Shown here: piece by piece, positions 5,384 through 56,727 of the stretch
Position numbering within the stretch: the first letter of the stretch is position 1
Layout of the letters: each line of letters starts with the position of its first letter
DNA from: Candidatus Woesebacteria bacterium RIFCSPLOWO2_01_FULL_39_61
GTDB taxonomy: Bacteria; Patescibacteriota; Microgenomatia; UBA8517
Reading direction: 5' to 3'
Length of the DNA: 64,000 bases
Assembly (NCBI GenBank): GCA_001793155.1
Contig: MGHI01000026.1
Location: forward strand, 271-64,270
Translations under genes and position numbers: made by a program
Notes under the pieces: generated by a model
Databases searched by the model: none
Told to the model about the DNA's origin: nothing
Seen by the model: only the letters and a program-made list of their open reading frames with translations

Positions 5384-5386
5384 GGA

Positions 5387-5871: not shown

Positions 5872-5892
5872 TATTCTCACCCCCTCCTTTTT

Positions 5893-6012: not shown

Positions 6013-6142
6013 TTAAAGATCTAAAACGACTATTAATTTTACAATTTCAGAGAAATCTGCTGTCCTTTGAAAAAGGAATTTACATCTGATTTATTTTTTC
6101 TTTGTCTACCTTTCTTTTGGGAAAAGAAAGGTAGAGTTAAGG

Positions 6143-7390: not shown

Positions 7391-7414
7391 AGGTTTATCC
7401 CAAATCTTTAAAAT

Positions 7415-39505: not shown

Positions 39506-40300
39506 TTATTTCTTTCCTTGAAAATACTTATAAGTTTCTATATCTTTGGGAACATATAACTCAATATAAAAACGCGGATCGTTGAATAATTGTGTCAAAA
39601 AGAAATAAAAATTTAATTTTTTTCCTTCCTTCGCCTTGATTGTTTTTTTTGCAAAATCAGCAATAAGAGGTCTTTCAGTCATTTTCTTTCGTACCTCTAG
39701 CCATACATCGTGAAATACAGAATTACCCATCATGTGTTTAATTAACTGCTGATACCAGTGTTCGTTGGTCCTTTGACGTTGCGCATGTTGAAATTGCATA
39801 AGTGTTTTAACCATAAACTCCCTTCGTTCCTTGCTTTCCGTAATATTTTGTGTTTTGTTTTGCGAAAAGTCAGGATCAAAAATAATATCAATTGTATGAG
39901 GAAAATATTTTTCTATTCCTTCCTGTTCTTTTAAAGAAACATTTAATGCCTTATAAAGCTTCTGATTTGCAGAAATAATTCTCCAGGTGTAGTCAAGCGA
40001 TGATGCTGGAAATTCCCAGTTGTTAACTATCGGATCAATCTTTTTTCGGGCCTCTTTTATGTCTTCAGCAGTCGGTAAATAATTTCCTATAACCAGTAAT
40101 TGGTTTTTTTCTTCCTCGGACAAGGTCATTGCGTCAATCAATTTATCGATTAGCTCTCTTGGGGGATTTCCGACCTTGCCTTGTTCTATCCGGGAAAGGC
40201 GCGAGGGTTCCTTCCATCCCAATGCAAATGCGATCTCCAATTGAGAGATGTTTTTCTGAAGCCTTAAATCCTTAATATAACCTCCGAGTGTTGCTGACAT
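39506..40300 (-). CDS. XRE-family HTH regulator with a C-terminal domain of about 190 aa of unknown function
   Basis: N-terminal LRLQKNISQLEIAFALGW…LSRIEQG helix-turn-helix. Confidence 0.6.
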   Translation of the reverse strand: MSATLGGYIKDLRLQKNISQLEIAFALGWKEPSRLSRIEQGKVGNPPRELIDKLIDAMTLSEEEKNQLLVIGNYLPTAEDIKEARKKIDPIVNNWEFPASSLDYTWRIISANQKLYKALNVSLKEQEGIEKYFPHTIDIIFDPDFSQNKTQNITESKERREFMVKTLMQFQHAQRQRTNEHWYQQLIKHMMGNSVFHDVWLEVRKKMTERPLIADFAKKTIKAKEGKKLNFYFFLTQLFNDPRFYIELYVPKDIETYKYFQGKK

Positions 40301-40389: not shown

Positions 40390-40662
40390 GTGAGTCAATT
40401 ACTTGACATGATTTATTGTATATGTTATTTTTGGAAAATGAAGAGTAGGCCGGTTATCCTCTACTCAAAGGTAACTGTTAGGGTAAATAACACTGAATAT
40501 ATTTTTAAACTTGTGCGTTCTGACGAAATAAATATTACCCAAGGAAAGATTTCAATCGAAGCGCCCTTGGGAAAAGCACTTTTAAACAAAAGGGCAAAAG
40601 AAAAAGTTTGGGTAAAAACGCCAATCGGAAAAACAAAATATCAAATTATTGCAATTGATTAG
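40390..40662 (+). CDS. GreA/GreB C-terminal (FKBP-like) domain protein, stand-alone
   Basis: GKISIEAPLGKALLNKRAKEKVWVKTPIGKTKYQIIAID closely follows the GreA C-terminal pattern (ISxxSPLxxALLGKxxGDxVxVxxPxGxxxYEIL). No N-terminal coiled coil. The start may be ATG 40438. Confidence 0.55.
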   Translation: MSQLLDMIYCICYFWKMKSRPVILYSKVTVRVNNTEYIFKLVRSDEINITQGKISIEAPLGKALLNKRAKEKVWVKTPIGKTKYQIIAID

Positions 40663-40817
40663 TACTTTAAACAAATAAATCGATTTTTTAAGAAAACCGC
40701 GAAGATTTTACGGTTGTTTTAAGAAATTGAACCATTATTCGCTCTTTGACAAATAAATAATAATAAGTTGAAGAGCCTGCACACTATTTGTATCAACCTT
40801 CGTGATATTATGGGTAT

Positions 40818-41510: not shown

Positions 41511-41589
41511 TATTTTTAGGTAAACTCTCCTTTCCCCTCATTTTTACCTATACAACAGCATTCTTCTTATAAATATTGTTGTATGGGCA

Positions 41590-41790
41590 AAAACCCATAA
41601 GCTCTTTAACAAGTGAAGATTGTGTGTAAATAAGTTGTAAGAAGTTGGAAGTAAGCAGTAAGAAAAGAATAAATCTAAAGTTCACAAACCAAAAGGGGGT
41701 TTGCTGTGAACGCAAAACCAGGTAGTCAATTACAACTGAATACTTCAGGGGGCAAGAAAACACTACGGTCAGTTTTCCATTCTTACGCCG
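41590..41790 (+). repeat. Leader repeat, copy 1 (ATAAGCTCTTTAACAAGTGAAGATTGTGTGT…GTTCACAAACC…TGTGAAC…TTACAACTGAATACTTCAGGG)
   Basis: Shares three blocks with 43232..43400. It carries an internal insertion of about 50 nt. The GTTCACA/TGTGAAC stem is conserved. Confidence 0.45.
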
Positions 41791-41925
41791 CAAAGCGGCA
41801 AGGAGAGAATAAAATGATAGTCTTTAGAAGAAGGTTCAAGATTTGGTTTTTCTAACAATCTTGACATCTGAAGTACTGATAACCCTCTTACGAATGGGAA
41901 GCATAGTTACATAATAATATATAAT

Positions 41926-43152
41926 ATGAAGCAGATTATGAAAAAAACAGAAAATACGAAGTCAAAAATACTCTACAAGAAGAAATTTTTTTTATTGGTT
42001 ATTCTAACTGTATTTGTATTTGGGGGGCTGGTCATTTTTAGATTTGGTAGGGGCGAGCAGAGACAGGAATTTCCTCTTCAAGTAGTCAACGAAGCAATCC
42101 TAACAGGAAATTGCACAGAAACTACCGATTGTGTTTTGACACTTTTATCTCCGAATGGAGCAACAAAGGAGCTAGAAAACGTTTTTTCTTTTAAGAAAGA
42201 TACACCTGTTTATTTACTTCCGAATGGGAAAACTTTGGTTTATTTATCGGAAAATGAGGGGGTTGGCATTGTGGATATTTTAAATAAAAGAAGAATCTTA
42301 ATTCCCAATACTCAGCAGGCAAAGTTATTGCAAAGGTACTCAGACAGTTTTTGGATTGATAATGAAAATCAAGTTGAACTTTATGATTTAGAAGGTAAAC
42401 AAAAAGTATCTATCAAGAAAAACTTATTACCTAATTACGAAGAGAGCAAAGACTTTAGACCACCATCATTAAGTCCTTTATATTCAAATAAAAAGATTCT
42501 TGCTATAACTGGAGCTAAAGGCGAAGGCTTCAGCACAACTACTCTTTGGGAAGTATTCTCTGAAAAAAGATCAACTAAACTTAAAAGTAAGGACACTTTT
42601 ATGAATGCCTGCGGCGATGAGGAATGTGTTTCTAATGAAATTTACTTTTTAAACACACAGGCCGGATATCTAGTAATTGTAAACCACAACGATCGCTCGA
42701 CATCTTGGACAGAGGTGTATAAATTATTTCCAGATGCTAGTAGGGAAAGTTTCGCACTTAACGAACTTGTTAACTCTTCACTATCTCCTTGGGATGGCGT
42801 AATTTTATCTAACGACGACAATAAATTGTATTACGTGCAAAATGGTGTAATTAATGCGGGAGATGGGATCAGTAATTCAAGAAATTTTATATATGAATAT
42901 AACCTTGAGAGTGGAAAGCTTAAAACAATCCTTGAATTCGAACTACCTTCAGGTGGAAGCAATTACTTCAGTCCATTAACCCTCTCGCCAACTGGAAGTT
43001 ATATGCTACTTAACGATTCTCGCCCCGATGAAAAGGATATCCGTCATAATTTCTATACTATACTAGTGATAAATGATGGTGAATTAAAAAGTAACTTAGA
43101 CCCACTTCTTGAAGGGAAGAAAATCATCGGATGGGTAAATACCGAAGACTGA
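41926..43152 (+). CDS. Hypothetical secreted protein, possibly beta-propeller (TolB/PD40-like)
   Basis: Signal anchor. Repeated blade-like segments (…KLYYVQNG…, …SPTGSYMLL…). Weak. Confidence 0.35.
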   Translation: MKQIMKKTENTKSKILYKKKFFLLVILTVFVFGGLVIFRFGRGEQRQEFPLQVVNEAILTGNCTETTDCVLTLLSPNGATKELENVFSFKKDTPVYLLPNGKTLVYLSENEGVGIVDILNKRRILIPNTQQAKLLQRYSDSFWIDNENQVELYDLEGKQKVSIKKNLLPNYEESKDFRPPSLSPLYSNKKILAITGAKGEGFSTTTLWEVFSEKRSTKLKSKDTFMNACGDEECVSNEIYFLNTQAGYLVIVNHNDRSTSWTEVYKLFPDASRESFALNELVNSSLSPWDGVILSNDDNKLYYVQNGVINAGDGISNSRNFIYEYNLESGKLKTILEFELPSGGSNYFSPLTLSPTGSYMLLNDSRPDEKDIRHNFYTILVINDGELKSNLDPLLEGKKIIGWVNTED

Positions 43153-43231
43153 GAATAACGGTCTCCAATTAACTGGCGATATAATCAGCCTATGCGTAAG
43201 TGTCTTATCTAAAGATATTTACGTATGGGCT

Positions 43232-43400
43232 AAATAAGTCCATAAAGCTCTTTAACAAGTAAAGATTGTGTGTTGAAAAAATGTTCACAAACCAAATGGA
43301 GGTGTGCTGTGGACAGAAAAGGTAAGATCCAAAACTTACAACTGAATATTTCAGGGAGTAACGAGAATCAAGATTTCACCAACCAGAGTTCTAGATACAA
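43232..43400 (+). repeat. Leader repeat, copy 2
   Basis: ATAAAGCTCTTTAACAAGTAAAGATTGTGTGT…GTTCACAAACCAAATGGAGGTGTGCTGTGGAC…TTACAACTGAATATTTCAGGG. Confidence 0.45.
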
Positions 43401-43413
43401 AAGGAGAACTTCG

Positions 43414-46400
43414 ATGTTTAAGAAAGTCACGCACGTTGTAATTTCGATGGTGTTGATACTGCTTTTCTTTCCGCACGACACCAACAGAGTGCAGGCAGCT
43501 CAGACTATCCGTCTGCCTTTTCCACCACTTTATAGCTACAACCCAGCAAATGGTTCTTTTAGCCAAAACAGAGTTCCAATTACAGATGCTTGCCAAGATG
43601 GACAGGGCGCAGCTGGAACTCACATCGAGCACACCCGTAATGCTAGGTTTGCGGTTGATTTCGGAATGAGAACTGGAACTCCTGTTTACGCTCCTGTTTC
43701 GGGAGACGTCGTCTATGCTGCTTATACAGCCGGTTACGGTCTACTAATGCGTATTAGAGAAAGTAGCGAACGGGAACATTACTTGGCTCATCTCTCAAAG
43801 TTCTATGTAACGAGTGGGCGTGTCAACCAAGGTGATCTTGTAGCTCTATCTGGTGAGACAGGAAAAGGTCCTGCACATCTACACTACCATGTTCAAAAAC
43901 CAGGCGGCGGTACCGCTATTCAAGACGCGGACGATGTTCGTGATGAGCTACCAGGAATTAACTGGATCGATTCTAGCGACTACTGTAATCAAGGTGGTGC
44001 GATCGATGGGACAGCTCATGCATCACCACTCCCAAATGGCGGTTCTCCAGCCAATAATTGTGCCGAGTTTTACAACCAAGGGCGTCCCGGTGTATGGGGA
44101 TTTGACGCTCCGAACTGCCAGGGCAACGTTGTTTTTGGTTCCCTATCTGACGGGACAAATTTCAACTTGGCACAGAATAATGTCAATGATCGTTTGCGAT
44201 CTATTTCTGCACGACCAAATCTGCATTTCTGGCTCTACGCCCACACAGACAGCGAATCCTTGAAGCACTGCCATGAAAAGGATATGTGGAATCTGGATAC
44301 AGACAACTATAACTTCACAACAACTGATATGATAGGTTGGGATTCAGATTACGACAAGCAAAATGTCGGTGGCGGAGAGTTAGTTAGTACTGGCTACAAC
44401 ATGGTCTCCCGTCTAAGGGTCGTAACCGAAGCGTGTCCCCAGAATCAAGGTAGCAGAGTGCAGGCTTACGAAATAAGCACTGGCTACGGAATAGGCGGCG
44501 GAGGCGATATTACTTCTCCTGAAACTTCTGCTTCCTTTATAGGAACTGAGGGCAATAATAACTGGTATGTTTCGCCGGTTACGGTTGTTCTCTCTGCCTA
44601 TGATGAATTTGATGTGGCACATACTTACTACCGTATTAATGGCGGAAACATCACTGAGGGAACAAGCTTCTCTCTCGATGTAGAAGGAATCTACGCTGTA
44701 GAATTCTGGTCAGAAGACTCGAGTGGTAATGTAGAATCCACAAAATCCGTCCCAGTTAAGATTGACTGGACACCTCCGGAAACCACCTGTGAAGTTTTAG
44801 GTTCTCGCGACATGCTCGGAATTTTCCGCAGCCCCGTTGACAACACATGTTCGGCAACGGATAACTTATCCGGACCGGACTACACGGAATACTCGTTCGA
44901 CAACGGCAACACCTGGAACCTTTATGGTGGAGTTTTCACCTTAAGTGATAACGGCGTCTACGAGTATCTTTTCCGAAGTGTTGACATTGCCGGAAACGTT
45001 GAAGATGCAAAACCCTCCGGGGTTATCGACATCAAGCGCTTTGTCATCTTGACGAATTCGCTGACAAGTAACAGCGCAACCACCCTCCAGACTTTGGGAG
45101 TGGCCCACACAAATGGGAATGCGGGTTTTACTAATAACAATACAGTCCACCTGCAAACCCTTGAGTACTTAGGCCAGTTTACCCAATCGGGTAATGTGTC
45201 TTTCACCATCGATAACCTGGTTCAATCAAGTCAAGTGGAAACTTTACCGCTCTATCCTTTAAGTTTCTACAGAGATGTCTGCACGTTCATACCAGGACCG
45301 ATCATTGACCGTTCCACATCTCGAACTTACAACGAATGTTGGTATGTAGACGGCGACATTACTCTGGAAACTACGGGTTCAACTGGAAATCTCACGATTA
45401 TCAGTGAAGGAGTAATTTACGATAGAAGCACCAATTCGCATCTATCAGCCTGGGATACTACTAATGGAATCCTTTACTACGCTCGCCGAGGATATGTAAC
45501 CGAGTCGGGAGGAGCCGTCTATAACGGGGTTATTTACGCTCCGTACTCAAGTGTAAGCGGTCCGTTTACCAACTCAACACTCTCTGGTGGAATATTTGCC
45601 AACAACCTGAGTTTGAGCGCCGGTACGAGTTTGAGTGCCCAGCAGGCTGCCGGTTTCCCCCCGTCGACCTATCCTCTACCGCTTATCGCTGTCGAGCAAC
45701 CTGTACCTAACATTATCTATGTTAGCTCGATGGGCGGCGGAACTGTCGGTGGAATTGCGACAGCTGACGAGGACATCCTAACCTATAACCGCGAGCAGGG
45801 TAGCTACGCAATGTTCATCGACGGATCGGATATAGGACTTTCCTATACGGATATTGACGCCTTCTTTGCGTTACCAGATGGGACCTTCCTGATGAGCTTT
45901 GATTCGAGCATAAGTGTCAGTCCTTTGGGAACTGTCTATTATGCCGACATCGTCCGCTTTACCCCAACCTCGCTCGGATCTACCACCGCGGGTACTTTTG
46001 AATGGTACTTTGACGGATCAGACGTTGGTCTTACAACAAGCGACGAGGATATTGATGCAATCGGCTTTACTCCCCACGGTAAACTCGTAGTCAGCACCTT
46101 AGGCTACGTAAGCGTCACTGGTGTTTCCGGTAACGACGAAGACTTAATCGTCTTTACGCCAACCAGTTTGGGAGCAAACACCGCAGGAACCTGGGCTTGG
46201 TACTTTGACGGATCAGACGTCGGCTTGAATGAATCCTCTTACGAGGATATCAACGGCATCTGGATTGACCCAGTCACCGGACAAATCTACCTAACTACGG
46301 TAGGATCCTTTAGCGTTAGCGGCTTAAGTGGCGACGGAGCGGATATTTTTATCTGTACACCCAGTTCTTTGGGATCAACCACTGCCTGTACTTACGGCCC

Positions 46401-46473
46401 GGGACTTTACTGGGACGGATCGAAGAACGGCTTTTCCGGAAAAGTTCTCGACAGCGTCGTAGTTCAAAAGTAA
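43414..46473 (+). CDS. Secreted M23-family metallopeptidase, about 1019 aa, with C-terminal novel repeats (start revised to ATG 43414 with the RBS AAGGAGA)
   Basis: Signal peptide MFKKVTHVVISMVLILLFF. M23 motifs HIEH…D and HLHYHV. Four C-terminal repeats of about 60 aa (TPTSLGSTTAGTxxWYFDGSDVGL…). Confidence 0.75.
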   Translation: MFKKVTHVVISMVLILLFFPHDTNRVQAAQTIRLPFPPLYSYNPANGSFSQNRVPITDACQDGQGAAGTHIEHTRNARFAVDFGMRTGTPVYAPVSGDVVYAAYTAGYGLLMRIRESSEREHYLAHLSKFYVTSGRVNQGDLVALSGETGKGPAHLHYHVQKPGGGTAIQDADDVRDELPGINWIDSSDYCNQGGAIDGTAHASPLPNGGSPANNCAEFYNQGRPGVWGFDAPNCQGNVVFGSLSDGTNFNLAQNNVNDRLRSISARPNLHFWLYAHTDSESLKHCHEKDMWNLDTDNYNFTTTDMIGWDSDYDKQNVGGGELVSTGYNMVSRLRVVTEACPQNQGSRVQAYEISTGYGIGGGGDITSPETSASFIGTEGNNNWYVSPVTVVLSAYDEFDVAHTYYRINGGNITEGTSFSLDVEGIYAVEFWSEDSSGNVESTKSVPVKIDWTPPETTCEVLGSRDMLGIFRSPVDNTCSATDNLSGPDYTEYSFDNGNTWNLYGGVFTLSDNGVYEYLFRSVDIAGNVEDAKPSGVIDIKRFVILTNSLTSNSATTLQTLGVAHTNGNAGFTNNNTVHLQTLEYLGQFTQSGNVSFTIDNLVQSSQVETLPLYPLSFYRDVCTFIPGPIIDRSTSRTYNECWYVDGDITLETTGSTGNLTIISEGVIYDRSTNSHLSAWDTTNGILYYARRGYVTESGGAVYNGVIYAPYSSVSGPFTNSTLSGGIFANNLSLSAGTSLSAQQAAGFPPSTYPLPLIAVEQPVPNIIYVSSMGGGTVGGIATADEDILTYNREQGSYAMFIDGSDIGLSYTDIDAFFALPDGTFLMSFDSSISVSPLGTVYYADIVRFTPTSLGSTTAGTFEWYFDGSDVGLTTSDEDIDAIGFTPHGKLVVSTLGYVSVTGVSGNDEDLIVFTPTSLGANTAGTWAWYFDGSDVGLNESSYEDINGIWIDPVTGQIYLTTVGSFSVSGLSGDGADIFICTPSSLGSTTACTYGPGLYWDGSKNGFSGKVLDSVVVQK

Positions 46474-46504
46474 ATAAATCACACACAATCTAACTTGTAG
46501 AGAA

Positions 46505-46600
46505 AGGGTGGGTTCTATCCTTGTAGACCATATAATGTCTCAGCGACATTCTTAAGGTATACAAAAAAGATAGAGCCCACCGAATTTTTTTTATTTTTTC
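46505..46600. terminator. Long-stem terminator, possibly bidirectional, after the M23 gene
   Basis: AGGGTGGGTTCTATC…GATAGAGCCCACC stem of about 13 bp, followed by T8ATTTTTT. Its loop contains an ATGTC…GACAT sub-hairpin. Confidence 0.5.
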
Positions 46601-46618: not shown

Positions 46619-47077
46619 TTATTTCGTGAAGGTAACCGTTCTTGTTTCGCCCGAAGCTGAGGCTACTAATCTTCCATTTGCGTCTACCATAATGAGATAA
46701 TCCTCGCTAGTCTTTGTTTTCGGATCTGTAGGAATTTCGGCCATATATTCGGGAACTATTGTTTCGCCCGTCTCTCCTGCACTGGCCAGATCAAAACACC
46801 CAAAACTCGATCCAATACAGGTTAATGACGTCGGAAAGTTACTGGTCAGGGGATCTCCGTCCGTATCCGGTAAATCACCGCTATGCTCCGAGGTGTATTG
46901 ATAGATTGCACCCAAAATCGCGAGAATGTCGGTTTCTCTTTGAGTATCTCTGGCTTTGGCCAATTGCCTTCCCGGATTAATAACTACAACAAGGACTGTC
47001 GATAAAATACCTATAATAGCAATAACCAAAAGCAGTTCAAAAAGTGTAAAACCTTCAATAATTTTTGTTTTCATCAC
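46619..47077 (-). CDS. Type IV pilin (major pilin-like)
   Basis: Class III signal MKTKIIEG|FTLFELLLVIAIIGIL with Glu at +5. Confidence 0.8.
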   Translation of the reverse strand: MMKTKIIEGFTLFELLLVIAIIGILSTVLVVVINPGRQLAKARDTQRETDILAILGAIYQYTSEHSGDLPDTDGDPLTSNFPTSLTCIGSSFGCFDLASAGETGETIVPEYMAEIPTDPKTKTSEDYLIMVDANGRLVASASGETRTVTFTK

Positions 47078-47313
47078 TAATTAATAACAAGGGGTGTGCT
47101 TTGTCGGTTAAAAACCCAGCTGTAAGCCTCGTCTAATTTATCCTTATTGATTTTCGATCCGGATTCCAGTGCGCTCTGATCTATCTCGTATGCAGTTATA
47201 TACGACGAAAAAACTGTCCTAAAGGACATAATGACAAGTACCGACATTAAGACCAAAACAAGTGTCAGAACCAAATAAAATTTATCTAGTTTGCCCCAAT
47301 CTATCGACGACAT
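47077..47313 (-). CDS. Small membrane protein in the pilus operon
   Basis: Single TM helix. Confidence 0.3.
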   Translation of the reverse strand: MSSIDWGKLDKFYLVLTLVLVLMSVLVIMSFRTVFSSYITAYEIDQSALESGSKINKDKLDEAYSWVFNRQSTPLVIN

Positions 47314-48112
47314 ACAAAAATACTCCGTATTTAAAGTCTATCACAGACGGATCCTCAGAATCCGTTTTAACTTCGATTACCGCGGATCTATAGAGAAAAG
47401 GAAGTTTTTCAAGATCTTCCAAATCCTGGCCTATCGCTTCCCATGATCCTTTCATCTCGATAACTATTGGCACACCAAAGTTATCTGTCCTGTCCTGAAT
47501 TGCTTTCTGACTGGTAAAGGTTACCTTCACTATACTTCGACCTTTAGCTCTGATTTTTTCCACTTCATTGACAAAGTTAACGACTCCCGATTCGTCCAAA
47601 AATAATCCTTTTAGAGTATCGGCTTTATTCTTGCTCAATTCAATTTCTGAAGTTTCTAAAGTAGCTTGTGGTCCTTCAATCAAACTTTGATTTCTTAAGC
47701 CTTTGAGATCTTGAGCTTTTTGGGGGAACCTGGTCAATATAATAATCAAAAATACTATGGTTATTAAATTTATAACCCCTAAAATTACATCCTTTGAGGT
47801 AAAGGGTAATTTAGATTTTTCTCCACCTTCAAATACCTCTGGGCTTGTTTCTAAATCTTTACCTTTCACCTCAGGCTCTGCATCTTTCTTTCTTTCTTCT
47901 TTTGCTGGGAGTTTATTCTCTTTGTCTACAGGAACGGGGGATTGATTTACAGTAGGTTTAGGTTCTGGCTTCCGTGCCGGTTTAGATTCCTCAACCGTTT
48001 CCGGAGGCAGTTCCTTCATTTCAGTTAAATACTTTCCCACTTCCGGTTTTTTGATTTCCTCACTTGCCGTCGACAATTCTTTATTGATCTCTGAGCTAGG
48101 TTTTTTAATCAT
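47282..48112 (-). CDS. Bitopic membrane protein in the pilus operon (PilO/PilN-like)
   Basis: Lys/Glu/Pro-rich N-terminus, a single TM helix, then a domain of about 140 aa. The position after pilM/N suggests PilO. No motif. Confidence 0.35.
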   Translation of the reverse strand: MIKKPSSEINKELSTASEEIKKPEVGKYLTEMKELPPETVEESKPARKPEPKPTVNQSPVPVDKENKLPAKEERKKDAEPEVKGKDLETSPEVFEGGEKSKLPFTSKDVILGVINLITIVFLIIILTRFPQKAQDLKGLRNQSLIEGPQATLETSEIELSKNKADTLKGLFLDESGVVNFVNEVEKIRAKGRSIVKVTFTSQKAIQDRTDNFGVPIVIEMKGSWEAIGQDLEDLEKLPFLYRSAVIEVKTDSEDPSVIDFKYGVFLYVVDRLGQTR

Positions 48113-48130
48113 TTTAGAAAATAGGCTGGT

Positions 48131-49546
48131 TTATTTCTTTGCCGGTATGTTTTCTGTTATCGGTAAAAAGTCAAAAGATAACTTGAATTCCTGATTTACC
48201 TCTGATTCAAAACTTGAAATGGGAATAATTACGGATCCAACGTTTGGATTAGTTTCTAAGTTATCCTTAAATTGGAGAAGGTCAGCACGAGTTGCCGCAA
48301 CACCACCCAAGTCGATCTTACCTATATCCAAATCTAATTTATAAATGGATATCGTTATCCCAGCAGGCTTGGCGCCGTTAATATCGTTCAGGACTTTTTG
48401 GGGAGGAGTTGTAATTTTTTTAATCTTAAGTATCTTTTCTGCAAATTCATTTATGTATTTAACATCCTTAATTGCTTCCTGCCTTTCGACCATCAAACTA
48501 CCGCCTCTCGTTTTACTATCTTTTAAGTCGCTTACCTGTTGCACCATCAAAAGGTATGCCCCTAATGTAATTAAAAAGGAAATCCAAACAAATAAAGTAA
48601 CTGTCAGAGTTAAACTCCAAATCTGGAGTTTAAGGCGTGCTTTTTTATATTTTTCTACCAATAAATTCGGTAAAAGGTTTATTGTAAAGGGGTCAGACGG
48701 CTCGCTCAAATCCTTAAGTTGCATGGAGATAGGAATCAAATACTCCTGCAACTGAGTGTCTGATAGTCCGCTAATTTTGGGTTTAAGAAAACTTATTTCT
48801 TTATTAATAATTTTTTGAAGCTCCCTTTGAAGCGTTTCGTCTGTCTCTGTTCCACCAATAAAAACTTTATCCGCGTTAAACTCTTTATAGTGAGATATCA
48901 TCTTTACCGCTGTAGCAACAACGGATTTTACATCCTGGTTTCTTAGAACCGAGGTACCGAAAATTTTGTCTCCTTGAGCCAAAATTATAATTGACTCGCC
49001 GTAATTTTTATAGATAATTAGGCAATTTTCTTTGTTGTCGGAGGAAGTTAATCTCGATAAACACAAAGATGGGATTACAACTGCTAGAGGAAAAAGATCT
49101 GCTTTTTCAACTGCTTCTACATAGTCGAATAGTGTTTTTTTATCTATTGCGACGATGAGAATTTCGTACTCTTTATCCTTATTATTCACTATCTTCCAAT
49201 CCATAATCATCTCGGTCAAGGGAGATGGAAGATATTCTTGTGCTTGCCAACGAACGGCCTCATCTAACTCGGATAGCTGAAGTTTCGGAATAGTTAACAT
49301 TTTAGTAAATGTCGAAAATTCAGGAAGTATGATGCCCGCAGTTTTTTCCTTCAAATGAATCTTGGACCATGCACCTTTTAATATATTGGCTAAAGCTAAC
49401 TTATCATCGACCACACCTCCTTTAATCAGTCCTTGAGGGAGGTCCAAAGAAGCATATTTCTGAACCTTTTTCTTCTTGGAGTCAAGCTGAATTACAGAAA
49501 GTTTATTGGAAAGAAAGTAAAGTGATACAAAAGTTTGATTAAACAT
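48131..49546 (-). CDS. pilM: Type IV pilus assembly protein PilM (actin-like ATPase) fused to a PilN-like TM domain
   Basis: The N-terminus follows the PilM pattern (…LPEFST…LTIPKLQLSELDEAVRWQAQEYLP). C-terminal TM helix LQIWSLTLTVTLFVWISF. Confidence 0.6.
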   Translation of the reverse strand: MFNQTFVSLYFLSNKLSVIQLDSKKKKVQKYASLDLPQGLIKGGVVDDKLALANILKGAWSKIHLKEKTAGIILPEFSTFTKMLTIPKLQLSELDEAVRWQAQEYLPSPLTEMIMDWKIVNNKDKEYEILIVAIDKKTLFDYVEAVEKADLFPLAVVIPSLCLSRLTSSDNKENCLIIYKNYGESIIILAQGDKIFGTSVLRNQDVKSVVATAVKMISHYKEFNADKVFIGGTETDETLQRELQKIINKEISFLKPKISGLSDTQLQEYLIPISMQLKDLSEPSDPFTINLLPNLLVEKYKKARLKLQIWSLTLTVTLFVWISFLITLGAYLLMVQQVSDLKDSKTRGGSLMVERQEAIKDVKYINEFAEKILKIKKITTPPQKVLNDINGAKPAGITISIYKLDLDIGKIDLGGVAATRADLLQFKDNLETNPNVGSVIIPISSFESEVNQEFKLSFDFLPITENIPAKK

Positions 49547-49716
49547 GGCAGGAAATTTTAGATTATCAATCCATTATTGCAAATGCATCGCGTGATATCA
49601 ACCAAATTAATATTAGGTGCTACTAAATAATTGCTTTTTCTATTGCATTTGCGAGTGTCCGGTCTTTAGGTTGGGGGGTGAAGCGAATGCAACAAACTTG
49701 TTAAGCCTAAGAGGCG

Positions 49717-49748
49717 AAACTACTCTGGCCTTTAGGCCAGAGTAGTTT
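49717..49748. promoter_or_regulatory. Perfect 14-bp stem hairpin AAACTACTCTGGCC-TTTA-GGCCAGAGTAGTTT, 20 nt upstream of the 49769 start
   Basis: Direct inspection. No U-tract after it. Confidence 0.4.
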
Positions 49749-49768
49749 ATACTTAATATCAACTGATT

Positions 49769-51124
49769 ATGTTTCAGGTCCTGTCCAAAGATAGAAATCT
49801 CAAAAGTGGCCAAGTACTTCTTAGCATCCTTATTTCTATTGCTGTTTTTGCGATTCTTACACGGGCGATTTTTACGCTAGTTGCTTCATCCTTTGATCTA
49901 GTAAACTTTAACCGATCCAGGATTACCGCAAGACATTTAGCCCAAGAGAAAATCGAATTGGCAAGAAATTTACCTTATGACCAAATTGGAACTGTCGGAG
50001 GCATACCGAACGGAATTCTAGCGGAAGAAGAAAATATTCAAAGGAACGGTCTTAATTTTTTAGTCAAAACAAGCATCATCTTTGTAGATGATGATTTTGA
50101 TTTGACAGCCCCAAATGACACGGACCCGGAAGACTACAAAAGGATGAGGGTGGAAGTTTCATGGGAGGGGTTGGCGGCTTCAAGAAAAAATCCGATTGTT
50201 TTAATCACGGATATAACTTCCCAGCAGGCTTCGGGATCAACAACAGGTGGAACTTTGGTAATTCTGGTATTTAATGCTAACGGTCAAGCCGTATCTCAAG
50301 CCGAAGTTACAATTACCGCCCCTTCCTTAACCCCTCCTGTAAATGTGACTCAAACCACAGGGAATGACGGTAAAGTGACACTTCCCGGAGCAGAGCCTTG
50401 TAATAGTTGCTACCAAATTACGGTTACAAAATCAGGGTTTAGTACCGATCGAACTTACTCAACCAGCGAGGTTACAAATCCAATCAAACCCCACGCGAGT
50501 TTATTGGACGGCGAAGTCACCCAAGTTAGTTTTCAGATTGACCTGGTAGGGATAATAAACATTGCCTCGGTCGATAGCCGGGAAAATAATTTTGCAGTAA
50601 AAGGATCGGTCCCCTTCCGCCTGCGAGGAAACAAAATTATCGGAACCAATACATTAGGTCAATACGTTTATAAGCTTGATACTAACTACACTACTGATTC
50701 GGGCGGAAACTTTAATCTTCCCAATGCGGAGTGGGATACATACCAGGTAATCATGCCTACCGCAACATCCTGGGATATATCAGGCACAGAACCCCTGTTG
50801 CCGGTGTCTTTAATTCCGGGTGGAACTATAGATCTTACTTTTGCCGTCGAACCTCATACAAGCCATAGTCTTCTGACAATCATCAGAGAACCTTCTCAAA
50901 GTCTTATTGCTTCGGCATCGGCCAGACTTTACGACGGTGTCGGATTTGACCAGACCCTTGTAAGCGGCGAGTCAGGAAATCCAGATTTCGGTCAGGCTTT
51001 CTTTTCAAATCTTGGGGAAACGACATACCAAATCGAGGCAACCGCCTCAGGATATCTGAATTTTAATGGTAATTTTGACGTTACCGGTTATACGGTGGGG
51101 GAGGTGGTTCTCACCCCCGAATAA
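49769..51124 (+). CDS. Pilus-operon protein with an N-terminal hydrophobic pilin-like anchor and beta-sandwich domains
   Basis: N-terminal KSGQVLLSILISIAVFAIL is a non-canonical prepilin-like segment. The rest is Thr/Gly-rich and beta-rich. Confidence 0.4.
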   Translation: MFQVLSKDRNLKSGQVLLSILISIAVFAILTRAIFTLVASSFDLVNFNRSRITARHLAQEKIELARNLPYDQIGTVGGIPNGILAEEENIQRNGLNFLVKTSIIFVDDDFDLTAPNDTDPEDYKRMRVEVSWEGLAASRKNPIVLITDITSQQASGSTTGGTLVILVFNANGQAVSQAEVTITAPSLTPPVNVTQTTGNDGKVTLPGAEPCNSCYQITVTKSGFSTDRTYSTSEVTNPIKPHASLLDGEVTQVSFQIDLVGIINIASVDSRENNFAVKGSVPFRLRGNKIIGTNTLGQYVYKLDTNYTTDSGGNFNLPNAEWDTYQVIMPTATSWDISGTEPLLPVSLIPGGTIDLTFAVEPHTSHSLLTIIREPSQSLIASASARLYDGVGFDQTLVSGESGNPDFGQAFFSNLGETTYQIEATASGYLNFNGNFDVTGYTVGEVVLTPE

Positions 51125-51126
51125 AC

Positions 51127-51219
51127 TACTGCAGACCAAAGTCTGCAGTATTCTAGAACATTCGTTCTAGACAGTTTGTTCACTGCTTCGCTTCTCCGCC
51201 AGTCGGCGGATCGCGAAGT
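51127..51219. promoter_or_regulatory. Three consecutive perfect hairpins in the 100-nt gap between pilus genes
   Basis: ACTGCAGAC-CAAA-GTCTGCAGT. TCTAGAAC-ATTC-GTTCTAGA. CTTCGC…TCCGCC-AGTC-GGCGGA…GCGAAG. Confidence 0.45.
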
Positions 51220-51229
51220 TTGAATAAAA

Positions 51230-51895
51230 ATGAAAAAAAGTGTAAATTGTAAATTGAAAATAAATAACCAGCTTCGCTGTGAAAATTACGAGCGAAGTGG
51301 GTCAGGTTTTACCTTAATTGAGATACTAGTTTCGGCTGCAATTATGGTCATCCTCGCTGCAGGATTTCTAGGTCTTCAGTATATTTTAAGCAGAAACCAA
51401 GTCACCGCTTGGTCCAATTACTTCGCAATCGAAAGTTCAAATACCGCAATGTCAACACTTATCCGGGAGCTGAGAAACGCCCAACCAAGCGGTAACGGTG
51501 GATACTCATTAGAATCACTTCAGGATTTTGAGATTATCTTTTATTCCGATTACGATTTCGATAGCCACATAGAAAGACTAAGGTATACCTTGACTGGGAG
51601 CCAATTCGTAAAAGGAATTATTGAACCTGTCGGCGATCCTGCAGTTTATGATCCAGCCACCGAGGATGTAAAAGTAATTTCCGATATAATAAGAAACGGA
51701 GCTAATCCGGTTTTTTATTATTACAATTCAGGCTGGCCGCAGGATACGGTTAATAATCCTTTACTACAAATCGACAGAATTGCAGATACCAGGTATGTGA
51801 AATTAATATTAAAGTCAAATCCTAATCCGAATAACTCCGACTTTGATTATGTCTTAGAATCGGATACCAGAGTTCGAATGTTACAAGATAACTAA
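51230..51895 (+). CDS. Pseudopilin / minor pilin with a prepilin-type N-terminal methylation domain
   Basis: GFTLIEILVSAAIMVILAAG class III signal. 221 aa. Confidence 0.75.
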   Translation: MKKSVNCKLKINNQLRCENYERSGSGFTLIEILVSAAIMVILAAGFLGLQYILSRNQVTAWSNYFAIESSNTAMSTLIRELRNAQPSGNGGYSLESLQDFEIIFYSDYDFDSHIERLRYTLTGSQFVKGIIEPVGDPAVYDPATEDVKVISDIIRNGANPVFYYYNSGWPQDTVNNPLLQIDRIADTRYVKLILKSNPNPNNSDFDYVLESDTRVRMLQDN

Positions 51896-51896
51896 A

Positions 51897-53318
51897 ATGA
51901 TTTTAGAAAAACAAAGAGGGACAATAACCCCAGCGCTACTTATTATTGCCAGCGCTTTTATCATTATTATATACGGACTTTTATTTATATTGAGTCTGCA
52001 ATTCGACTATTCCCATAGACAAGTGGCGTCAGACCGCGCGCTCCAAATAGCGGAAGCGGGTATAAATTATTACCGTTGGCATTTAGACTCGGATCCCCTG
52101 GACTTTACAGACGGAACAGGAGGAGCGCCAGGTCCATATGAACACGACTATGTCGATCCTCAGGGATCGTCCATCGGAAAATACTCCTTGGTAATTGATC
52201 CACCTACCGAATCTAACCCTGTTGTTACGATAACATCAACGGGTTGGACAAATCAGTACCCTAAAGTAAAAAGAAAATTACAAATAAAATACGGTCAAAT
52301 CTCATTAACCCGTTTTGCATTTCTTCATAATTCCAACGTCTGGTTCGGCGATGATGTAACTATTAACGGTCCAGTATTTTCCAATGGAGGAATAAGGCAG
52401 GACGGACACAATACATCAACAATCGAAAGCTCTAAAGTAACTTATACCTGCGGAGAAGAAAGCGGTTGCAAACCCGACAAGGATGGTGTCTATCCCACGA
52501 AAGACGGTGTCTGGGGCAATGGGGAGCTGGACGAACTTTGGAGCTGGGGGGTAACCCCAATCGATTTTGACAGCATTAAAGTCGACTTCAATGAAATGAG
52601 GACCGCTTCCCAAGGATCAAGCGGTATCTATCTTGGTCCATCGGCTAATCAGGGGTATCATCTTACCTTTGCAGACGACGGCACTGTCTCCGTCTATGAA
52701 GTCACGGGAGTAAATACGATAAAAGGATATTCTTTGGAATATGGTTGCGAAAATCTCGCCCAGGAGATCACTAACGAAGTTGCAGCGGGAACTTATAGCT
52801 TAGCAGATAAAAATATTATATTTGCGGAGAATAATGTTTGGGTGGAAGGAGTCGTGAAGGGTGAAGTCAGTGTCATTGCAGCAGTATATCCGCTGGGGTC
52901 ATCCAATCCGACAATATGGATAGCCCAAAATATTACTTATCTTGATAAAGACGGAAGTAATAAATTGGGATTAATTTCGGAAAAAGATATTGTCTTCGGA
53001 CGGGATGTCCCCGACTACTTTAAAATAAATGGTGCGCTTTTAGCCCAAAACGGCAGAACGATAAGACACCACTACGGTTATCAAGGTTGTAGATCAGTCG
53101 GTCACGATAAAATTAAAAACGAATTTGAATTTTACGGATCATTAATTAGTAATCAGAGATCATATTGGAATTTCAGCTCAGGTGGCGGAAATCCTGCCTC
53201 AGGGTTTACGAAATCTATTCTTAACTATGATCCCACTCTGTATAGCGATCCTCCTCCTTACTTTCCATCTACCGGCGGATACCAGTTCATCTCCTGGAAT
53301 GAAATTAAAAGTAATTAA
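51897..53318 (+). CDS. PilX-like minor pilin / pilus tip protein
   Basis: N-terminal QRGTITPALLIIASAFIIIIYGLLFIL resembles the PilX N-terminal pattern. Confidence 0.5.
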   Translation: MILEKQRGTITPALLIIASAFIIIIYGLLFILSLQFDYSHRQVASDRALQIAEAGINYYRWHLDSDPLDFTDGTGGAPGPYEHDYVDPQGSSIGKYSLVIDPPTESNPVVTITSTGWTNQYPKVKRKLQIKYGQISLTRFAFLHNSNVWFGDDVTINGPVFSNGGIRQDGHNTSTIESSKVTYTCGEESGCKPDKDGVYPTKDGVWGNGELDELWSWGVTPIDFDSIKVDFNEMRTASQGSSGIYLGPSANQGYHLTFADDGTVSVYEVTGVNTIKGYSLEYGCENLAQEITNEVAAGTYSLADKNIIFAENNVWVEGVVKGEVSVIAAVYPLGSSNPTIWIAQNITYLDKDGSNKLGLISEKDIVFGRDVPDYFKINGALLAQNGRTIRHHYGYQGCRSVGHDKIKNEFEFYGSLISNQRSYWNFSSGGGNPASGFTKSILNYDPTLYSDPPPYFPSTGGYQFISWNEIKSN

Positions 53319-53662
53319 CGAAGACAAACCGTGTTTGAAGAAACAGACGGCAAACCATCTCCCGCTGTTGCTGCACATTTTTCTCTAAAAGGATCATCTT
53401 TTAGAAATTGATCTTGATCCAGTGAGGAATCTTCGAATGATATATCTTCAAAATACTTACCTATATCTTGGTCGCTTGCTTCTTTTGTTCCAACCGAAGC
53501 TTCTGCTTTTTCGGAAACCGTTTCTAATTCTTTTTTTTGGCTAACCAGCCCAAAAATAATAAGCCCGATGGATGCTGCTAAAAGAATCAAAACAATATAA
53601 AAAACCAACGGAAGTTCAATCTTATTACTCTCCTTAAATTTTGCAACTTCCTCCAAATCCAT
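53315..53662 (-). CDS. Hypothetical single-TM protein
   Basis: TM helix, then an acidic tail. Confidence 0.3.
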   Translation of the reverse strand: MDLEEVAKFKESNKIELPLVFYIVLILLAASIGLIIFGLVSQKKELETVSEKAEASVGTKEASDQDIGKYFEDISFEDSSLDQDQFLKDDPFREKCAATAGDGLPSVSSNTVCLR

Positions 53663-54874
53663 TTAGATACTTCCTTCCAATCCTCCTACAATACTATAGA
53701 TTGGAGTGATCAATAAAACCACCATAGCTCCCACCGCAATTCCTATAACAAGCATGAGTAAAGGTTCGAGTAGTGCCGTTGCCCTTTTTAATCCATAATC
53801 CACTTCCATTTCATAAAAAGTGGCGAGCTCTTCCAGGACTACTTCTAAACTGCCGGTTTTTTCACCGGCTTTTAGTGTTTGAATCATCGTTATCGGAAAA
53901 GAACGCTTATGTTTTAAGATTATATCGGAGAGGGCTTGTCCTTTGGCAACACCTTCGCTGAATTCCTTTGCCTGGAGCTTAAGATGGGGTTGCTTTAAAA
54001 CATCAGATGACACATCCAAAGCTACCATTATTGGAACGCCACTTTTCAATAAAGTAGAAAGAGTTCTTGCAAAACGTGCCGTGTCAAGTTGATCCATAAC
54101 TTTGGAAATCACAGGTAGCTTTACAAGGTAAGAAAAAATATAAGTTCGGGTAGAACGAATAAGAAAAAGGGCTATTACAATTAATATAATTCCGAAAAAA
54201 ACTCCTATTGTTAATGCTAAATTTCCGCCCACGGTGTCTCCCACGTTTAAGACAAAGCGTGTAACGGGGGGTAAATCCGCATTAAGAGACAAAAATACAT
54301 CGCTCATTTTTGGAAGAACAAAACCAAGCATGATAAAAGCATTTGCGATCATTGCTGCGATAATAACCATCGGATACATCATTGAACTTTTTACTTTTTG
54401 TGATAGTTCGTAGGTTGCCAAAAGTTGCTTTGCAAGATAGTCAAAAGATTTTTCCAAGGTTCCGGATTCTTCACCGGCTTTAATCATCGTTAAAAATACT
54501 GCATCAAAATCGGTTTTATATTTTGCTATTACGGAAGACAGCGGCTCGCCTTTTTGAATATGAAATGCGGAATCAAATAAAACTTGTTGCAGTTTTTTGC
54601 TTTGGGTCTCCTGACGGATAATATCAAGAGCCTCCGGCATGGGAAGACCTGCCCGAAGCATTGTAGCCATAAATCTGCAAAATGCAGCTTTTTCGGATAC
54701 CCCGATCCCGCCTCCGAACATTGAAGTCGCTTTGGGGTTTAAATTTTTGATTGATAATATCTGGAAGTCCTCGGATTTGAGAAATGTAGCGGCTTCCTTT
54801 TGGTTTGCCGCCTGAATTACATCCTCAATTATCTTTTCCTCTTTATCTTTTGCTTTGTATTTATATAAAGGCAT
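53663..54874 (-). CDS. pilC: Type IV pilus inner-membrane platform protein (GspF/PilC family)
   Basis: Two T2SS-F repeats. 403 aa. Typical topology. Confidence 0.9.
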   Translation of the reverse strand: MPLYKYKAKDKEEKIIEDVIQAANQKEAATFLKSEDFQILSIKNLNPKATSMFGGGIGVSEKAAFCRFMATMLRAGLPMPEALDIIRQETQSKKLQQVLFDSAFHIQKGEPLSSVIAKYKTDFDAVFLTMIKAGEESGTLEKSFDYLAKQLLATYELSQKVKSSMMYPMVIIAAMIANAFIMLGFVLPKMSDVFLSLNADLPPVTRFVLNVGDTVGGNLALTIGVFFGIILIVIALFLIRSTRTYIFSYLVKLPVISKVMDQLDTARFARTLSTLLKSGVPIMVALDVSSDVLKQPHLKLQAKEFSEGVAKGQALSDIILKHKRSFPITMIQTLKAGEKTGSLEVVLEELATFYEMEVDYGLKRATALLEPLLMLVIGIAVGAMVVLLITPIYSIVGGLEGSI

Positions 54875-54938
54875 AATTTATCTCAGTATTTCTTTTAAAA
54901 AAAGAAATACTGACAAAGAAAATAATACAAAAAAAATA

Positions 54939-56627: not shown

Positions 56628-56727
56628 TTAGAGTTAGCTAATAGTTTATATTACTAACTTCAACAAATTCATTATATACGAAAGGTGTTGTGTAAAAGAA
56701 GTTACGCTTCAATTAATTACAACTTTC

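Follow-up and report, generated by a model that had tools for sequence, protein, structure and literature searches.

The window, as we call the whole stretch of DNA analysed here, comprises 64 kb of the genome of a Candidatus Woesebacteria bacterium, a tiny groundwater member of the CPR. Within it a gene for a 408-aa ORFan is followed by a gene for a secreted M23 peptidase, and each of the two is preceded by a copy of the same leader. The features of the locus are given below in window coordinates.

39506-40300: XRE-type HTH protein
40741-40752 (+): third BoxA match, GCTCTTTGACAA, upstream of a 230-aa gene
40767-40776 (+): complementary arm GTTGAAGAGC, local to the third BoxA
41582..41599 (+): leader 1, hairpin A0 (UAUGGG/CCCAUA) in boxB position, ending 1 nt before BoxA
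41601-41612 (+): leader 1, BoxA GCTCTTTAACAA, followed by a spacer; together with the boxC-like box, the first block of the original prediction
41618-41627 (+): leader 1, boxC-like GU-rich box GATTGTGTGT
41680..41711 (+): leader 1, hairpin B, with an SD-like GGGGG in the loop and a GUG start codon (41706) in the 3' arm
41730..41750 (+): leader 1, block C, small hairpin CUGAA-UAC-UUCAG
41787..41855 (+): leader 1, hairpin D (GCCGC-AAA-GCGGC), SD AAGGAGAG and relic ORF
41926..43152 (+): 408-aa ORFan with N-terminal membrane anchor
43224..43244 (+): leader 2, hairpin A0 (UAUGGGCU/AGUCCAUA, one G.U pair), ending 2 nt before BoxA
43247-43258 (+): leader 2, BoxA
43264-43273 (+): leader 2, boxC-like box
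43283-43314 (+): leader 2, hairpin B, with GGAGG in the loop and GUG 43309 in frame with M23
43336-43356 (+): leader 2, block C
43414..46473 (+): secreted M23 peptidase, 1019 aa, with signal peptide; SD 43401-43406 and ATG
46481..46502 (+): trailer box A', ACACACAATCT-A-ACTTGT-AGAG, predicted to pair, in both leaders, with the boxC-like box and part of BoxA
46506..46593 (+): long terminator hairpin GGGTGGGTTCTATC...GATAGAGCCCACC, then a T run; stem conserved in the related locus L001

The repeat ahead of the two secreted-protein genes is real and far above chance. As originally predicted, both genes share three blocks upstream: block A, CTTTAACAAGT(G/A)AAGATTGTGTGT (41604-41627 and 43250-43273), block B, GTTCACAAACC..TGTG(A/G)AC (41680-41711 and 43283-43314), and block C, TTACAACTGAATA(C/T)TTCAGGG (41730-41750 and 43336-43356). 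Each is present exactly twice in the window, and none occurred in 100 shuffles. The hairpin directly 5' (41582-41599 and 43224-43244) is a fourth block common to both leaders. Ungapped identity within the blocks is 83-88%, while the spacers between them are unalignable, a 43-nt insertion being among the differences. The stem of block B, said to be kept through a U.G change, was found to be so. A further, weaker echo had been placed upstream of the ORF at 56728-57411. The sequence GTGTTGTGTAAAAGAAGTT exists at 56685-56703, but this ORF lies on the minus strand, so that the echo is not upstream of it; moreover, it contains no BoxA and is undetected by the block A profile.

Public annotation starts the M23 peptidase at GTG 43309, inside block B, which gives 1054 aa. 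The start common to the M23 orthologues is instead the SD with ATG 43414, followed by the signal peptide, in agreement with the start originally assigned. Leader 2 reads open, in frame with M23, from GUG 43309. A coding leader peptide was rejected on the spread of substitutions between leader 2 and its L001 counterpart over the three codon positions (10/7/13); together with the location of the differences on hairpin loops, this argues that leader conservation is not at the protein level. In leader 1, ATG 41814 opens only a relic ORF of 13 codons (MIVFRRRFKIWFF*), and the block formed by hairpin D, SD and relic ORF is common to the leaders of the related locus L019. The 408-aa ORFan is absent from the syntenic locus L001 and its homologue search was empty; collection scans with the 230-aa and 408-aa proteins gave no useful homologues.

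The core of block A and its surroundings

BoxA is the NusB/NusE site of rRNA antitermination, which prevents RNA polymerase from stopping inside rRNA operons. The core of block A reads GCUCUUUAACAA, and the BoxA consensus GYUCUUUAANA, published as GYTCTTTAANA (PMC5725501), is matched at 11 of 11 positions. Compared with the E. coli rrn BoxA, UGCUCUUUAACAA (PMC2724277), block A is identical at 12 of 13 positions; the E. coli rrsH leader was also read directly. Across copies block A is nearly invariant, with GCTCTTTAACA in both window leaders (w1, w2), L001, L016, L017, L019b and L049, GTTCTTTAACA in L013, the variant GCTCTTTGACA in L019a and L023, and a degenerate GCTATTTGACA in L015. The motif GYTCTTTRACA occurs exactly three times in the 64 kb, where 0.18 are expected, and no shuffle reaches three. 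All three matches lie on the plus strand, are intergenic and precede three consecutive co-directional genes; with one mismatch allowed, only one further, unrelated site appears in the window. In L001 the orthologous gene is preceded by the same arrangement as at the third BoxA, and L017 has a degenerate version of it.

A hairpin of 6-10 bp ends 1-3 nt before GYUC in 9 of the 11 leaders, and in the E. coli control, rrsH, a hairpin ends 3 nt before UGCUC. The hairpin A0 of leader 1 folds at -7.1 kcal/mol, a value matched by no shuffle, and its homologues in relatives differ in stem sequence. Altogether the nine hairpins use four unrelated stem sequences and contain 12 G.U pairs; so many G.U pairs point to sense-strand RNA rather than duplex DNA. 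On the other side of BoxA, 5-8 nt 3' and thus in the boxC position, lies the GU-rich box GAUUGUGUGU, kept in most copies and shortened to GAUUGUGA in L049 and L023; its distance from BoxA differs by 2-4 nt between copies. It reads UUGUGUGU and not UCUGUGUGGG as the boxC of Enterobacteriaceae, which follows BoxA after 18-19 nt (PMC10250234); UGUGUG is common to both, and this enterobacterial reference may not be that of the host. The order hairpin, BoxA, GU-rich box is that of the rrn leader, boxB-boxA-boxC (PMC10250234). On sequence grounds, an antitermination signal as in rRNA operons (BoxA/boxC) is the best reading of the first conserved block, and not a riboswitch or an operator.

Other assignments of the leader fared less well. 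Against Rfam the window has no match at gathering score, and between 41400 and 43500 permissive thresholds (E up to 10) brought up only noise. A riboswitch-like fold was dropped in view of the weak z-scores of whole-leader folding (-0.85 to -1.8). Of the proposal of a common cis-regulatory RNA, the sense-strand RNA signal before unrelated exoproteins is upheld as the best reading, and the new structured RNA or riboswitch is not. Block A as a sigma-70 promoter, with TTAACA/TTGACA as -35, is followed by no -10 in any copy, and none of the ECF, sigma-28, sigma-B, sigma-54 and Bacteroidetes-type promoter motifs, compared by eye, fits. An anti-SD role of CUCUUU and a three-way switch involving hairpin B can both be drawn on paper, but the copies do not bear them out consistently. 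A Xer/dif-like recombination site has against it that the arms are asymmetric and that no recombinase is nearby.

No sigma-70 consensus promoter was found directly upstream of either window leader. Weak -10-like hexamers stand 7 nt before the hairpin in some leader copies, and in L023, L001 (3198-3232) and L019a plausible boxes of the -10 or extended -10 type stand before the hairpin or BoxA. Neither nusB, rho, rnc nor any nus gene lies within the 64-kb window; NusA is encoded on the contig of one relative.

The trailer and its occurrence in relatives

The inverted copy of block A reported after the M23 stop was confirmed at 46481-46502, 6 nt past the stop codon. Relatives keep it too, with equivalents 5-11 nt past the stop in L001, L019 and L049. 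On the complement it reads ACAAGT plus AGATTGTGTGT, with a spacer 1 nt shorter than in block A, which is why searches allowing mismatches only had missed it. Its predicted duplex with block A (-26 to -27 kcal/mol, z about -6) is the best site in the downstream 4-5.5 kb. In four lineages, namely L001, L049 and, for both leaders each, the window and L019, a pairing scan of the next 3-5 kb places the strongest predicted partner of block A 2-11 nt past the stop of the distal gene, at -21 to -27 kcal/mol and z -3.9 to -6.2; extended into the flanks, the duplexes attain -29 to -37 kcal/mol. The identical scan, run on E. coli rrsH as a positive control, finds the known helix directly behind 16S (z -6.6). 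In rrn operons boxC lies within the 5' strand of this leader-trailer helix (PMC10250234).

The trailers of the window and L001 complement ACAAGU and the boxC-like box, that of L019 lengthens the pairing by UCC/GGA, and that of L049 complements BoxA and the boxC-like box without the middle. Because the trailers differ in the part of block A that they complement, they are more readily seen as pairing partners than as second protein sites. True covariation in the long-range helix is almost absent since block A hardly varies; in these few lineages it is limited to lineage-specific extensions, UCC/GGA in L019 and the BoxA arm in L049. Behind the trailer stands an intrinsic terminator in the window, L001 and L019, and a long hairpin without T-run in L049. 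Pairing is predicted over BoxA/boxC, which lies 140-300 nt before the main SD.

The full layout recurs in three other lineages, with an M23 peptidase in L001 and L049 and a Laminin_G_3 exoprotein in L019. The flanked M23 peptidases of the window, L001 and L049 have different N-terminal domains. Judged by these sequences, the leader-trailer device is cargo-independent. In the more distant M23 orthologues L012 and L050 a full copy of block A was not found. Hairpin and block A are present in L013, but the trailer is absent at the stop codon; in L017 both elements are retained, and downstream cargo is entirely missing. Comparison of synteny, as originally proposed, showed the neighbouring genes to be conserved in L001 and L017, and the 23x-aa gene upstream of M23 is found in L049 as well. 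The window, L001 and L015 have the HTH gene alongside the M23 locus; L017, which has no M23, lacks the HTH gene as well. An ORFan stands between two leader copies, behind a relic start site, in two lineages; variable cargo and duplicated leaders indicate that the locus recombines.

A scan of the genome collection for the motif gave no copy, and a search of that collection with the M23 protein gave only an Anaerolineae relative. The metagenome motif scan yielded seven loci. Viral scans returned mostly chance matches, besides a phage-like contig (L023) in which hairpin, BoxA and boxC stand in this order. Nine M23 proteins, once aligned, proved too divergent for a locus search.

Probable antitermination and alternative readings

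The shared leader is probably an rRNA-operon-type antitermination signal placed before protein-coding exoprotein genes and combined with a leader-trailer helix. Its sense RNA, presumably transcribed from upstream, would present in order the hairpin in boxB position, BoxA, the GU-rich box, the lineage-specific hairpins B, C and D, and SD with start codon. BoxA on the nascent RNA would be bound by NusB/NusE (S10), which together with NusA/NusG would turn RNA polymerase fast and Rho-resistant, and the modified polymerase could then traverse the long leader, which is not translated, and the exoprotein genes of 3-5 kb. Held at the RNA exit channel through BoxA binding, the leader may pair with the trailer as this emerges just past the stop codon, as in pre-16S rRNA. 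The helix would close the mRNA into a loop and might then protect both mRNA ends or offer an RNase III site.

The resemblance to E. coli rrn (boxB-boxA-boxC, rrnTAC, hLT) comprises BoxA, the upstream hairpin and the downstream GU-rich box, which in rrn forms, and here is predicted to form, the 5' strand of a long-range helix with sequence just past the payload; the same pairing scan finds both helices. The payload differs: there is no rRNA in the window or in the relatives' loci, and its place is taken by one or two genes that encode proteins (M23 peptidase, ORFan, Laminin_G_3 protein) and have SD sites and signal peptides. The spacer between BoxA and boxC is shorter here, and the predicted helix, with a core of 16-21 bp and 28-37 pairs including flanks, is comparable to the 25-40 bp reported for E. 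coli but has more bulges and G.U pairs. A further difference from rrn is the terminator, or in L049 the long hairpin, behind the trailer.

BoxA at protein-coding genes is already known. It is also said to occur upstream of CRISPR arrays, as described by Stringer et al. in 2020. BoxA controls suhB and a ParE-like toxin gene, among others (Baniulyte et al. 2017, PMC5725501), and there too a consensus BoxA lies in the 5' leader, tens of nt from the SD and outside rRNA operons. These suhB, toxin and CRISPR cases are described as BoxA alone, a boxC-like box or trailer complement not being reported for them; none is from Patescibacteria, and suhB is repressed, not antiterminated. A full rRNA-like bracket around ORFs appears to be undescribed. 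Lambda nut (boxA-boxB-boxC, N protein) likewise loads Nus factors through BoxA and a nascent-RNA hairpin (PMC2724277), whereas here the hairpin precedes BoxA as in rrn, BoxA is of the rrn-type CUUUA and there is no N-like protein. Specialised processive antitermination also serves long operons whose products are extracytoplasmic, as with RfaH/ops, LoaP, UpxY and EAR RNA; LoaP is treated in PMC12691694. The logic is similar, a leader signal making polymerase termination-resistant on long genes for secreted or surface products. These systems use NusG paralogues or a dedicated RNA, whereas here the general BoxA/Nus route appears to be taken.

A BoxA may also act negatively, as it does in E. coli suhB, where it represses rather than promotes expression (PMC5725501). 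Nus factors at BoxA would then loop the leader to the polymerase and keep ribosomes off the first start site, 25-45 nt downstream, with Rho termination as the consequence. In this way costly or dangerous exoproteins would be kept low, and trailer pairing would free BoxA. Every leader has a strong SD and start codon within about 10-80 nt of block A, suhB repression acts over insertions of up to 100 nt (PMC5725501), and an overproduced M23 wall hydrolase is plausibly harmful. Yet such repression needs no full rrn-like set of boxB-like hairpin, boxC-like box and trailer, and payloads of 3-5 kb are the usual territory of antitermination; we consider it rather unlikely. Pairing of 5' and 3' UTRs within one bacterial mRNA is known from S. 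aureus icaR, in which the 3'UTR masks the SD, and from B. subtilis hbs. As in these mRNAs, a 3'UTR segment here complements the 5' leader of its own mRNA, and mRNA stability or translation might be set without Nus factors, by pairing in cis or by a 3'UTR-derived sRNA in trans. The complementarity is strong and conserved in position, one A' serves two leaders, and an A' right after the stop and before a terminator has the anatomy of processed 3'UTR sRNAs. This explanation is quite improbable all the same: unlike in icaR, pairing falls on the BoxA/boxC region, far upstream of the main SD, which is left untouched, and the exact BoxA 5' half is unexplained, being complemented only partly by the trailers of the window, L001 and L019, as are the third BoxA (40741) and the A copies without A' (L013, L016, L017).

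Two readings place the signal in the DNA. Block A could be an operator, for instance for looping or repression by the HTH protein (39506-40300), or a promoter; it is present in both orientations, the HTH gene co-occurs with the M23 locus, and three copies contain a perfect TTGACA. Against this originally suggested operator stand the variable spacer within block A (2-4 nt), the strand-specific, G.U-rich hairpin adjoining it, and the 3' copies, which keep complementarity to block A but not its conserved 5' half and positions and lie in a presumably transcribed stretch between stop codon and terminator (window, L001, L019). For the promoter, no copy has a -10 element at 16-18 nt, and a DNA-level site is in our estimate very improbable. 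The least credence is given to the mobilised cassette, also proposed originally, with A and A' as terminal inverted repeats of a transposase-less element or as recombinase sites. Imperfect inverted repeats of 22-38 nt do surround variable cargo (M23, Laminin_G_3, ORFans), an ORFan lies between duplicated leaders in two lineages, L017 resembles an empty site and an IS element in L016 sits 7 nt after block A. However, the outer edges of the repeats show no target-site duplications, the window has no transposase or recombinase, L001 and L017 keep the same neighbours, an "empty" site would not keep a terminal repeat, and all 10 source-population assemblies are co-linear and practically identical. 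The DDE transposase element of L016 has its own, unrelated inverted repeats and merely inserted there, and block A as an IS end was rejected. Correia elements and mobile insertion cassettes are short inverted repeats capable of RNA pairing that flank or adjoin genes; here, by contrast, target duplications are lacking, multicopy dispersal is not seen and the repeat core is a BoxA.

Beyond antitermination itself, we tentatively suggest that in this Woesebacteria clade the complete rRNA-operon device (boxB-like hairpin, BoxA, boxC-like box, helix) may have been copied onto the mRNAs of large exoproteins, that the Nus-modified polymerase might hold the leader until the mRNA loop closes, and that the leader might be a portable module capable of ORFan capture. 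Leader duplication and relic start sites are seen in two lineages. If this suggestion holds, no mRNA bracketed by leader and trailer would have been described before, nor any regulatory RNA logic for CPR exoproteins.

To our knowledge, almost nothing is known about gene control in Patescibacteria/CPR. For the way in which these ultrasmall cells live on their hosts, secreted wall hydrolases and adhesin-like proteins are leading candidates. For annotation, the M23 start is corrected, and the locus illustrates that a conserved leader can pass for coding sequence. A leader-trailer helix around an mRNA would offer a tractable test of whether BoxA-bound polymerase delivers a 5' leader to a distant 3' partner. 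If the antitermination reading is true, control of protein-coding genes by Nus factors would extend well beyond gamma-proteobacteria, and through the BoxA consensus a regulon of surface and secreted factors could be traced cheaply in the genomes of uncultured lineages.

Repeated leaders and their genomic setting

As originally noted, three sequence blocks are shared by the regions upstream of two neighbouring genes. The window contains two copies of each, no more, at the positions claimed; shuffled sequence contains none. Pairwise alignment of leader 1 (preceding an ORFan gene) and leader 2 (preceding an M23 peptidase gene) gives 83-88% identity within the blocks; the inter-block spacers, which include a 43-nt insertion and a 3-nt indel, are unalignable. 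A fourth common block, a small hairpin, lies directly upstream (41582-41599 and 43224-43244). The inverted copy of the first block (block A) past the M23 stop codon is confirmed at 46481-46502, with an internal spacer 1 nt shorter than that of the leader block. The weaker echo proposed as a further member is present as a string at 56685-56703, but the ORF supposed to follow it lies on the opposite strand. Since a profile of leader block A does not detect it either, it was dropped.

Features of the window in and around the gene pair
40403-40662: 74-aa protein with the GreA/GreB C-terminal domain alone, just 5' of the BoxA gene cluster
41926-43152: ORFan, membrane-anchored, no homologues found
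43414-46473: M23 peptidase with SD, ATG and signal peptide
46619-56627: type IV pilus cluster (pilin-like N_methyl proteins, PilM/N, PilC/T2SSF, PilB/T2SSE)
57565-57962, minus strand: divergent RNase P RNA (bacterial class B match, 42.9 bits, E 2.6e-10)

By its proteins, the window belongs to a Candidatus Woesebacteria organism (CPR/Patescibacteria) from Rifle groundwater. The gene pair is flanked by a ThiF/HTH group on one side and the type IV pilus cluster on the other, and the 64-kb window contains no transposase, recombinase or nus gene. The pilus cluster is the immediate neighbour of the exoprotein unit, and the two converge on the terminator of that unit. The GreA/GreB-domain gene is preceded by a TTGACA-17-TATTTT (TG) promoter whose end lies about 7 nt from the start codon, and from this spacing the mRNA may be leaderless; the TGnTATTAT box of a 230-aa gene (ATG 40820) likewise ends 7 nt upstream of the start. 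The RNase P RNA occupies much of a 720-nt gap between two minus-strand genes. Its conserved stretches align (e.g. GGAAAGUCCA), and it is missed at the Rfam gathering threshold (gathering score 97).

Public annotation places the M23 start at GTG 43309, within the leader. Hairpin B carries an SD-like GGAGG followed 5-7 nt on by GUG/AUG in the window (43309-43413) and in two of the loci compared from other contigs, L001 (4122-4226) and L019 (7214-7137, minus strand). Reading from this start enters the main ORF in phase without meeting a stop, after 105 nt at the two M23 loci and after 78 nt in L019; the chance of such an open stretch is about 0.03 for the former and 0.1 for the latter. The 105-nt stretch has no indel between the two M23 loci, and the substitution pattern is not protein-like. 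The hairpin B start may give an N-terminally extended isoform or serve as a regulatory upstream start.

A BoxA-like leader and its predicted trailer partner

The block A profile search also found half-matches, GCTCTTTGACAA, upstream of the 230-aa gene in the window and in L001. Judged by its sequence, this half of block A is BoxA, published with the consensus GYTCTTTAANA (PMC5725501); in E. coli rrn, BoxA plus spacer reads ugcucuuuaacaauuua (PMC2724277). GYTCTTTRACA occurs three times in the window versus 0.18 expected, all on the same strand and preceding three consecutive genes. The Woesebacteria block is arranged as hairpin-A(A)-GCUCUUUAACAA-GUNAA-GAUUGUGUGU, and the E. coli rrsH leader reads GCGAC..GUCGC-AAC-UGCUCUUUAACAAUUUAUCAGACAAUCUGUGUGGGCAC. 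The arrangement of the block is that of rrn leaders, boxB-boxA-boxC (PMC10250234), the GU-rich box being a candidate boxC. In rrn operons boxC lies within the 5' strand of the leader-trailer helix (PMC10250234), and the Woesebacteria GU-rich box is exactly the part complemented by the 3' copy. The rrsH trailer, read directly, is GUGCUCACACAGAUUGUCUG, a short distance past the 16S 3' end.

Of 11 leaders, 9 have a hairpin of 6-10 bp whose 3' end lies 1-3 nt upstream of GYUC. These hairpins comprise four unrelated stem sequences with 12 G.U pairs in total; what is conserved is thus the structure, on the sense strand, and this favours RNA. Long-range pairing was assessed by an RNAduplex scan of each downstream region for a block A partner. 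For both leaders of the window, both of L019 and those of L001 and L049, the best partner starts 2-11 nt past the distal gene's stop, with z-scores of -3.9 to -6.2; nothing was found at the stop codon in L013. The same procedure recovered the known leader-trailer helix of E. coli rrsH (z -6.6). With longer flanks, the predicted pairing comprises 28-37 pairs (-29 to -37 kcal/mol), and for the window and L001 it extends to the leader hairpin, whose 3' arm would pair with the 5' arm of the terminator. Block A is near-invariant and the 3' copies vary in the part of it that they complement, so the 3' copy behaves as a pairing partner and not as a second protein-binding site.

Two further BoxA-like elements were seen. 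Within the upstream region that belongs to the ORFan itself, CCCTCTTAC (41883-41891) is similar to boxA of the lambda type, CGCUCUUA, perhaps by chance. On a phage-like IMG/VR contig (3300003690_000659, 2227-2292), hairpin-CGCTCTTTGACAAGTGAAGATTGTGAGTG-SD-ATG stands behind a TGGTAAAAT extended -10; it may imitate the host's rrn leader as a nut-like site, although the pattern search that gave it found three matches with about three expected by chance.

Conservation across relatives and cargos

Relatives are few in the collections searched, yet informative. L001 lacks the ORFan and has a single complete leader; its inverted copy lies 11 nt past the stop codon and its terminator stem is the same as the window's. 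Its M23 protein (4227-7544) and that of the window have unlike N-terminal catalytic regions and share leader, C-terminal two thirds (78% identity), trailer and terminator, which makes M23 a mosaic gene. The L049 M23 is 57% identical to the window's over the matched third; hairpin and block A are present, and 10 nt past the stop lies a copy complementary to the two ends of block A. L019 has a different genomic context and unrelated cargo, yet the window layout recurs: one leader precedes a relic SD and a 168-aa ORFan, the other a 904-aa Laminin_G_3 protein with an inverted copy 5 nt past its stop. L013 has hairpin and block A alone, 45 nt upstream of its M23 start, and no 3' copy.

L017 (4116-4193, minus strand; identical with L021) is syntenic with the window (ThiF, 222-aa gene, pilin-like genes) and lacks the HTH gene, M23 and ORFan; hairpin, BoxA and boxC-like box are kept intact after the upstream gene, facing the 3' end of a convergent gene. 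L016 carries an IS element (291-1318; 315-aa DDE_Tnp_1 transposase, 14-nt perfect inverted repeats CAGGACTTACGCAG) inserted 7 nt 3' of the boxC-like box, which separates the leader from its former downstream sequence. The more distant M23 genes of L012 and L050 have no full block A copy, L050 having a short leader with a TATAAT box near the start. From this comparison, block A is the constant part and the other blocks are lineage-specific modules.

The first leaders of the window (41787-41925) and L019 (8125-7907, minus strand) end with a hairpin and SD, GCCGC-NNN-GCGGC-AAGGAGAG, at which no real gene starts any longer: a 13-codon ORF follows in the window, and L019 has no ATG. Next in both comes an ORFan gene preceded by an upstream region of its own, an arrangement that looks like gene capture via recombination between leader-bearing loci.

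Alternative readings and a proposed mechanism

That block A and its inverted copy form a DNA operator, or that block A is a promoter, is very unlikely. Block A does occur in two orientations, and an adjacent HTH gene accompanies the locus wherever this could be checked (window, L001, L015) and is missing from the M23-less L017; however, the internal spacer of block A is variable, the hairpin is strand-specific, the 3' copies are loosely conserved and there is no -10 element. A mobile cassette bounded by the two copies is highly improbable: cargo that varies, leader duplication accompanied by relic starts, and an L017 locus that looks empty would fit it, but neither target duplications nor a transposase are found, flanking synteny is kept in L001 and L017, and ten source-population assemblies are collinear with hardly any differences. 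Pure 5'-3' UTR pairing, or an sRNA derived from the 3'UTR, we regard as unlikely, since it leaves both the exact BoxA and the partnerless block A copies unexplained.

Each component has precedents: BoxA itself, its occurrence at protein-coding genes, and the leader-trailer helix. A literature search returned no report that combines them into an rRNA-like bracket enclosing ORFs, and none of BoxA from Patescibacteria. The sequences themselves show the match to BoxA, how the elements are ordered and spaced, that they are conserved with different cargos, and where the complementary stretches lie and how strong the complementarity is. In the rrn-like mechanism we propose, NusB/NusE would load on BoxA and, with NusA/NusG, render the polymerase Rho-resistant, so that it could pass leaders of 140-330 nt and 3-5 kb of genes. 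The effect on the exoprotein genes may be positive or negative: at suhB, BoxA acts to repress translation and to favour termination by Rho (PMC5725501). The anchored leader would pair with the trailer on its emergence just past the stop codon, as in the Wahl-lab model of leader anchoring followed by trailer pairing (summarised in PMC10250234). The closed helix would then stabilise the message or be cut by RNase III, and the intrinsic terminator downstream of the trailer would stop transcription.
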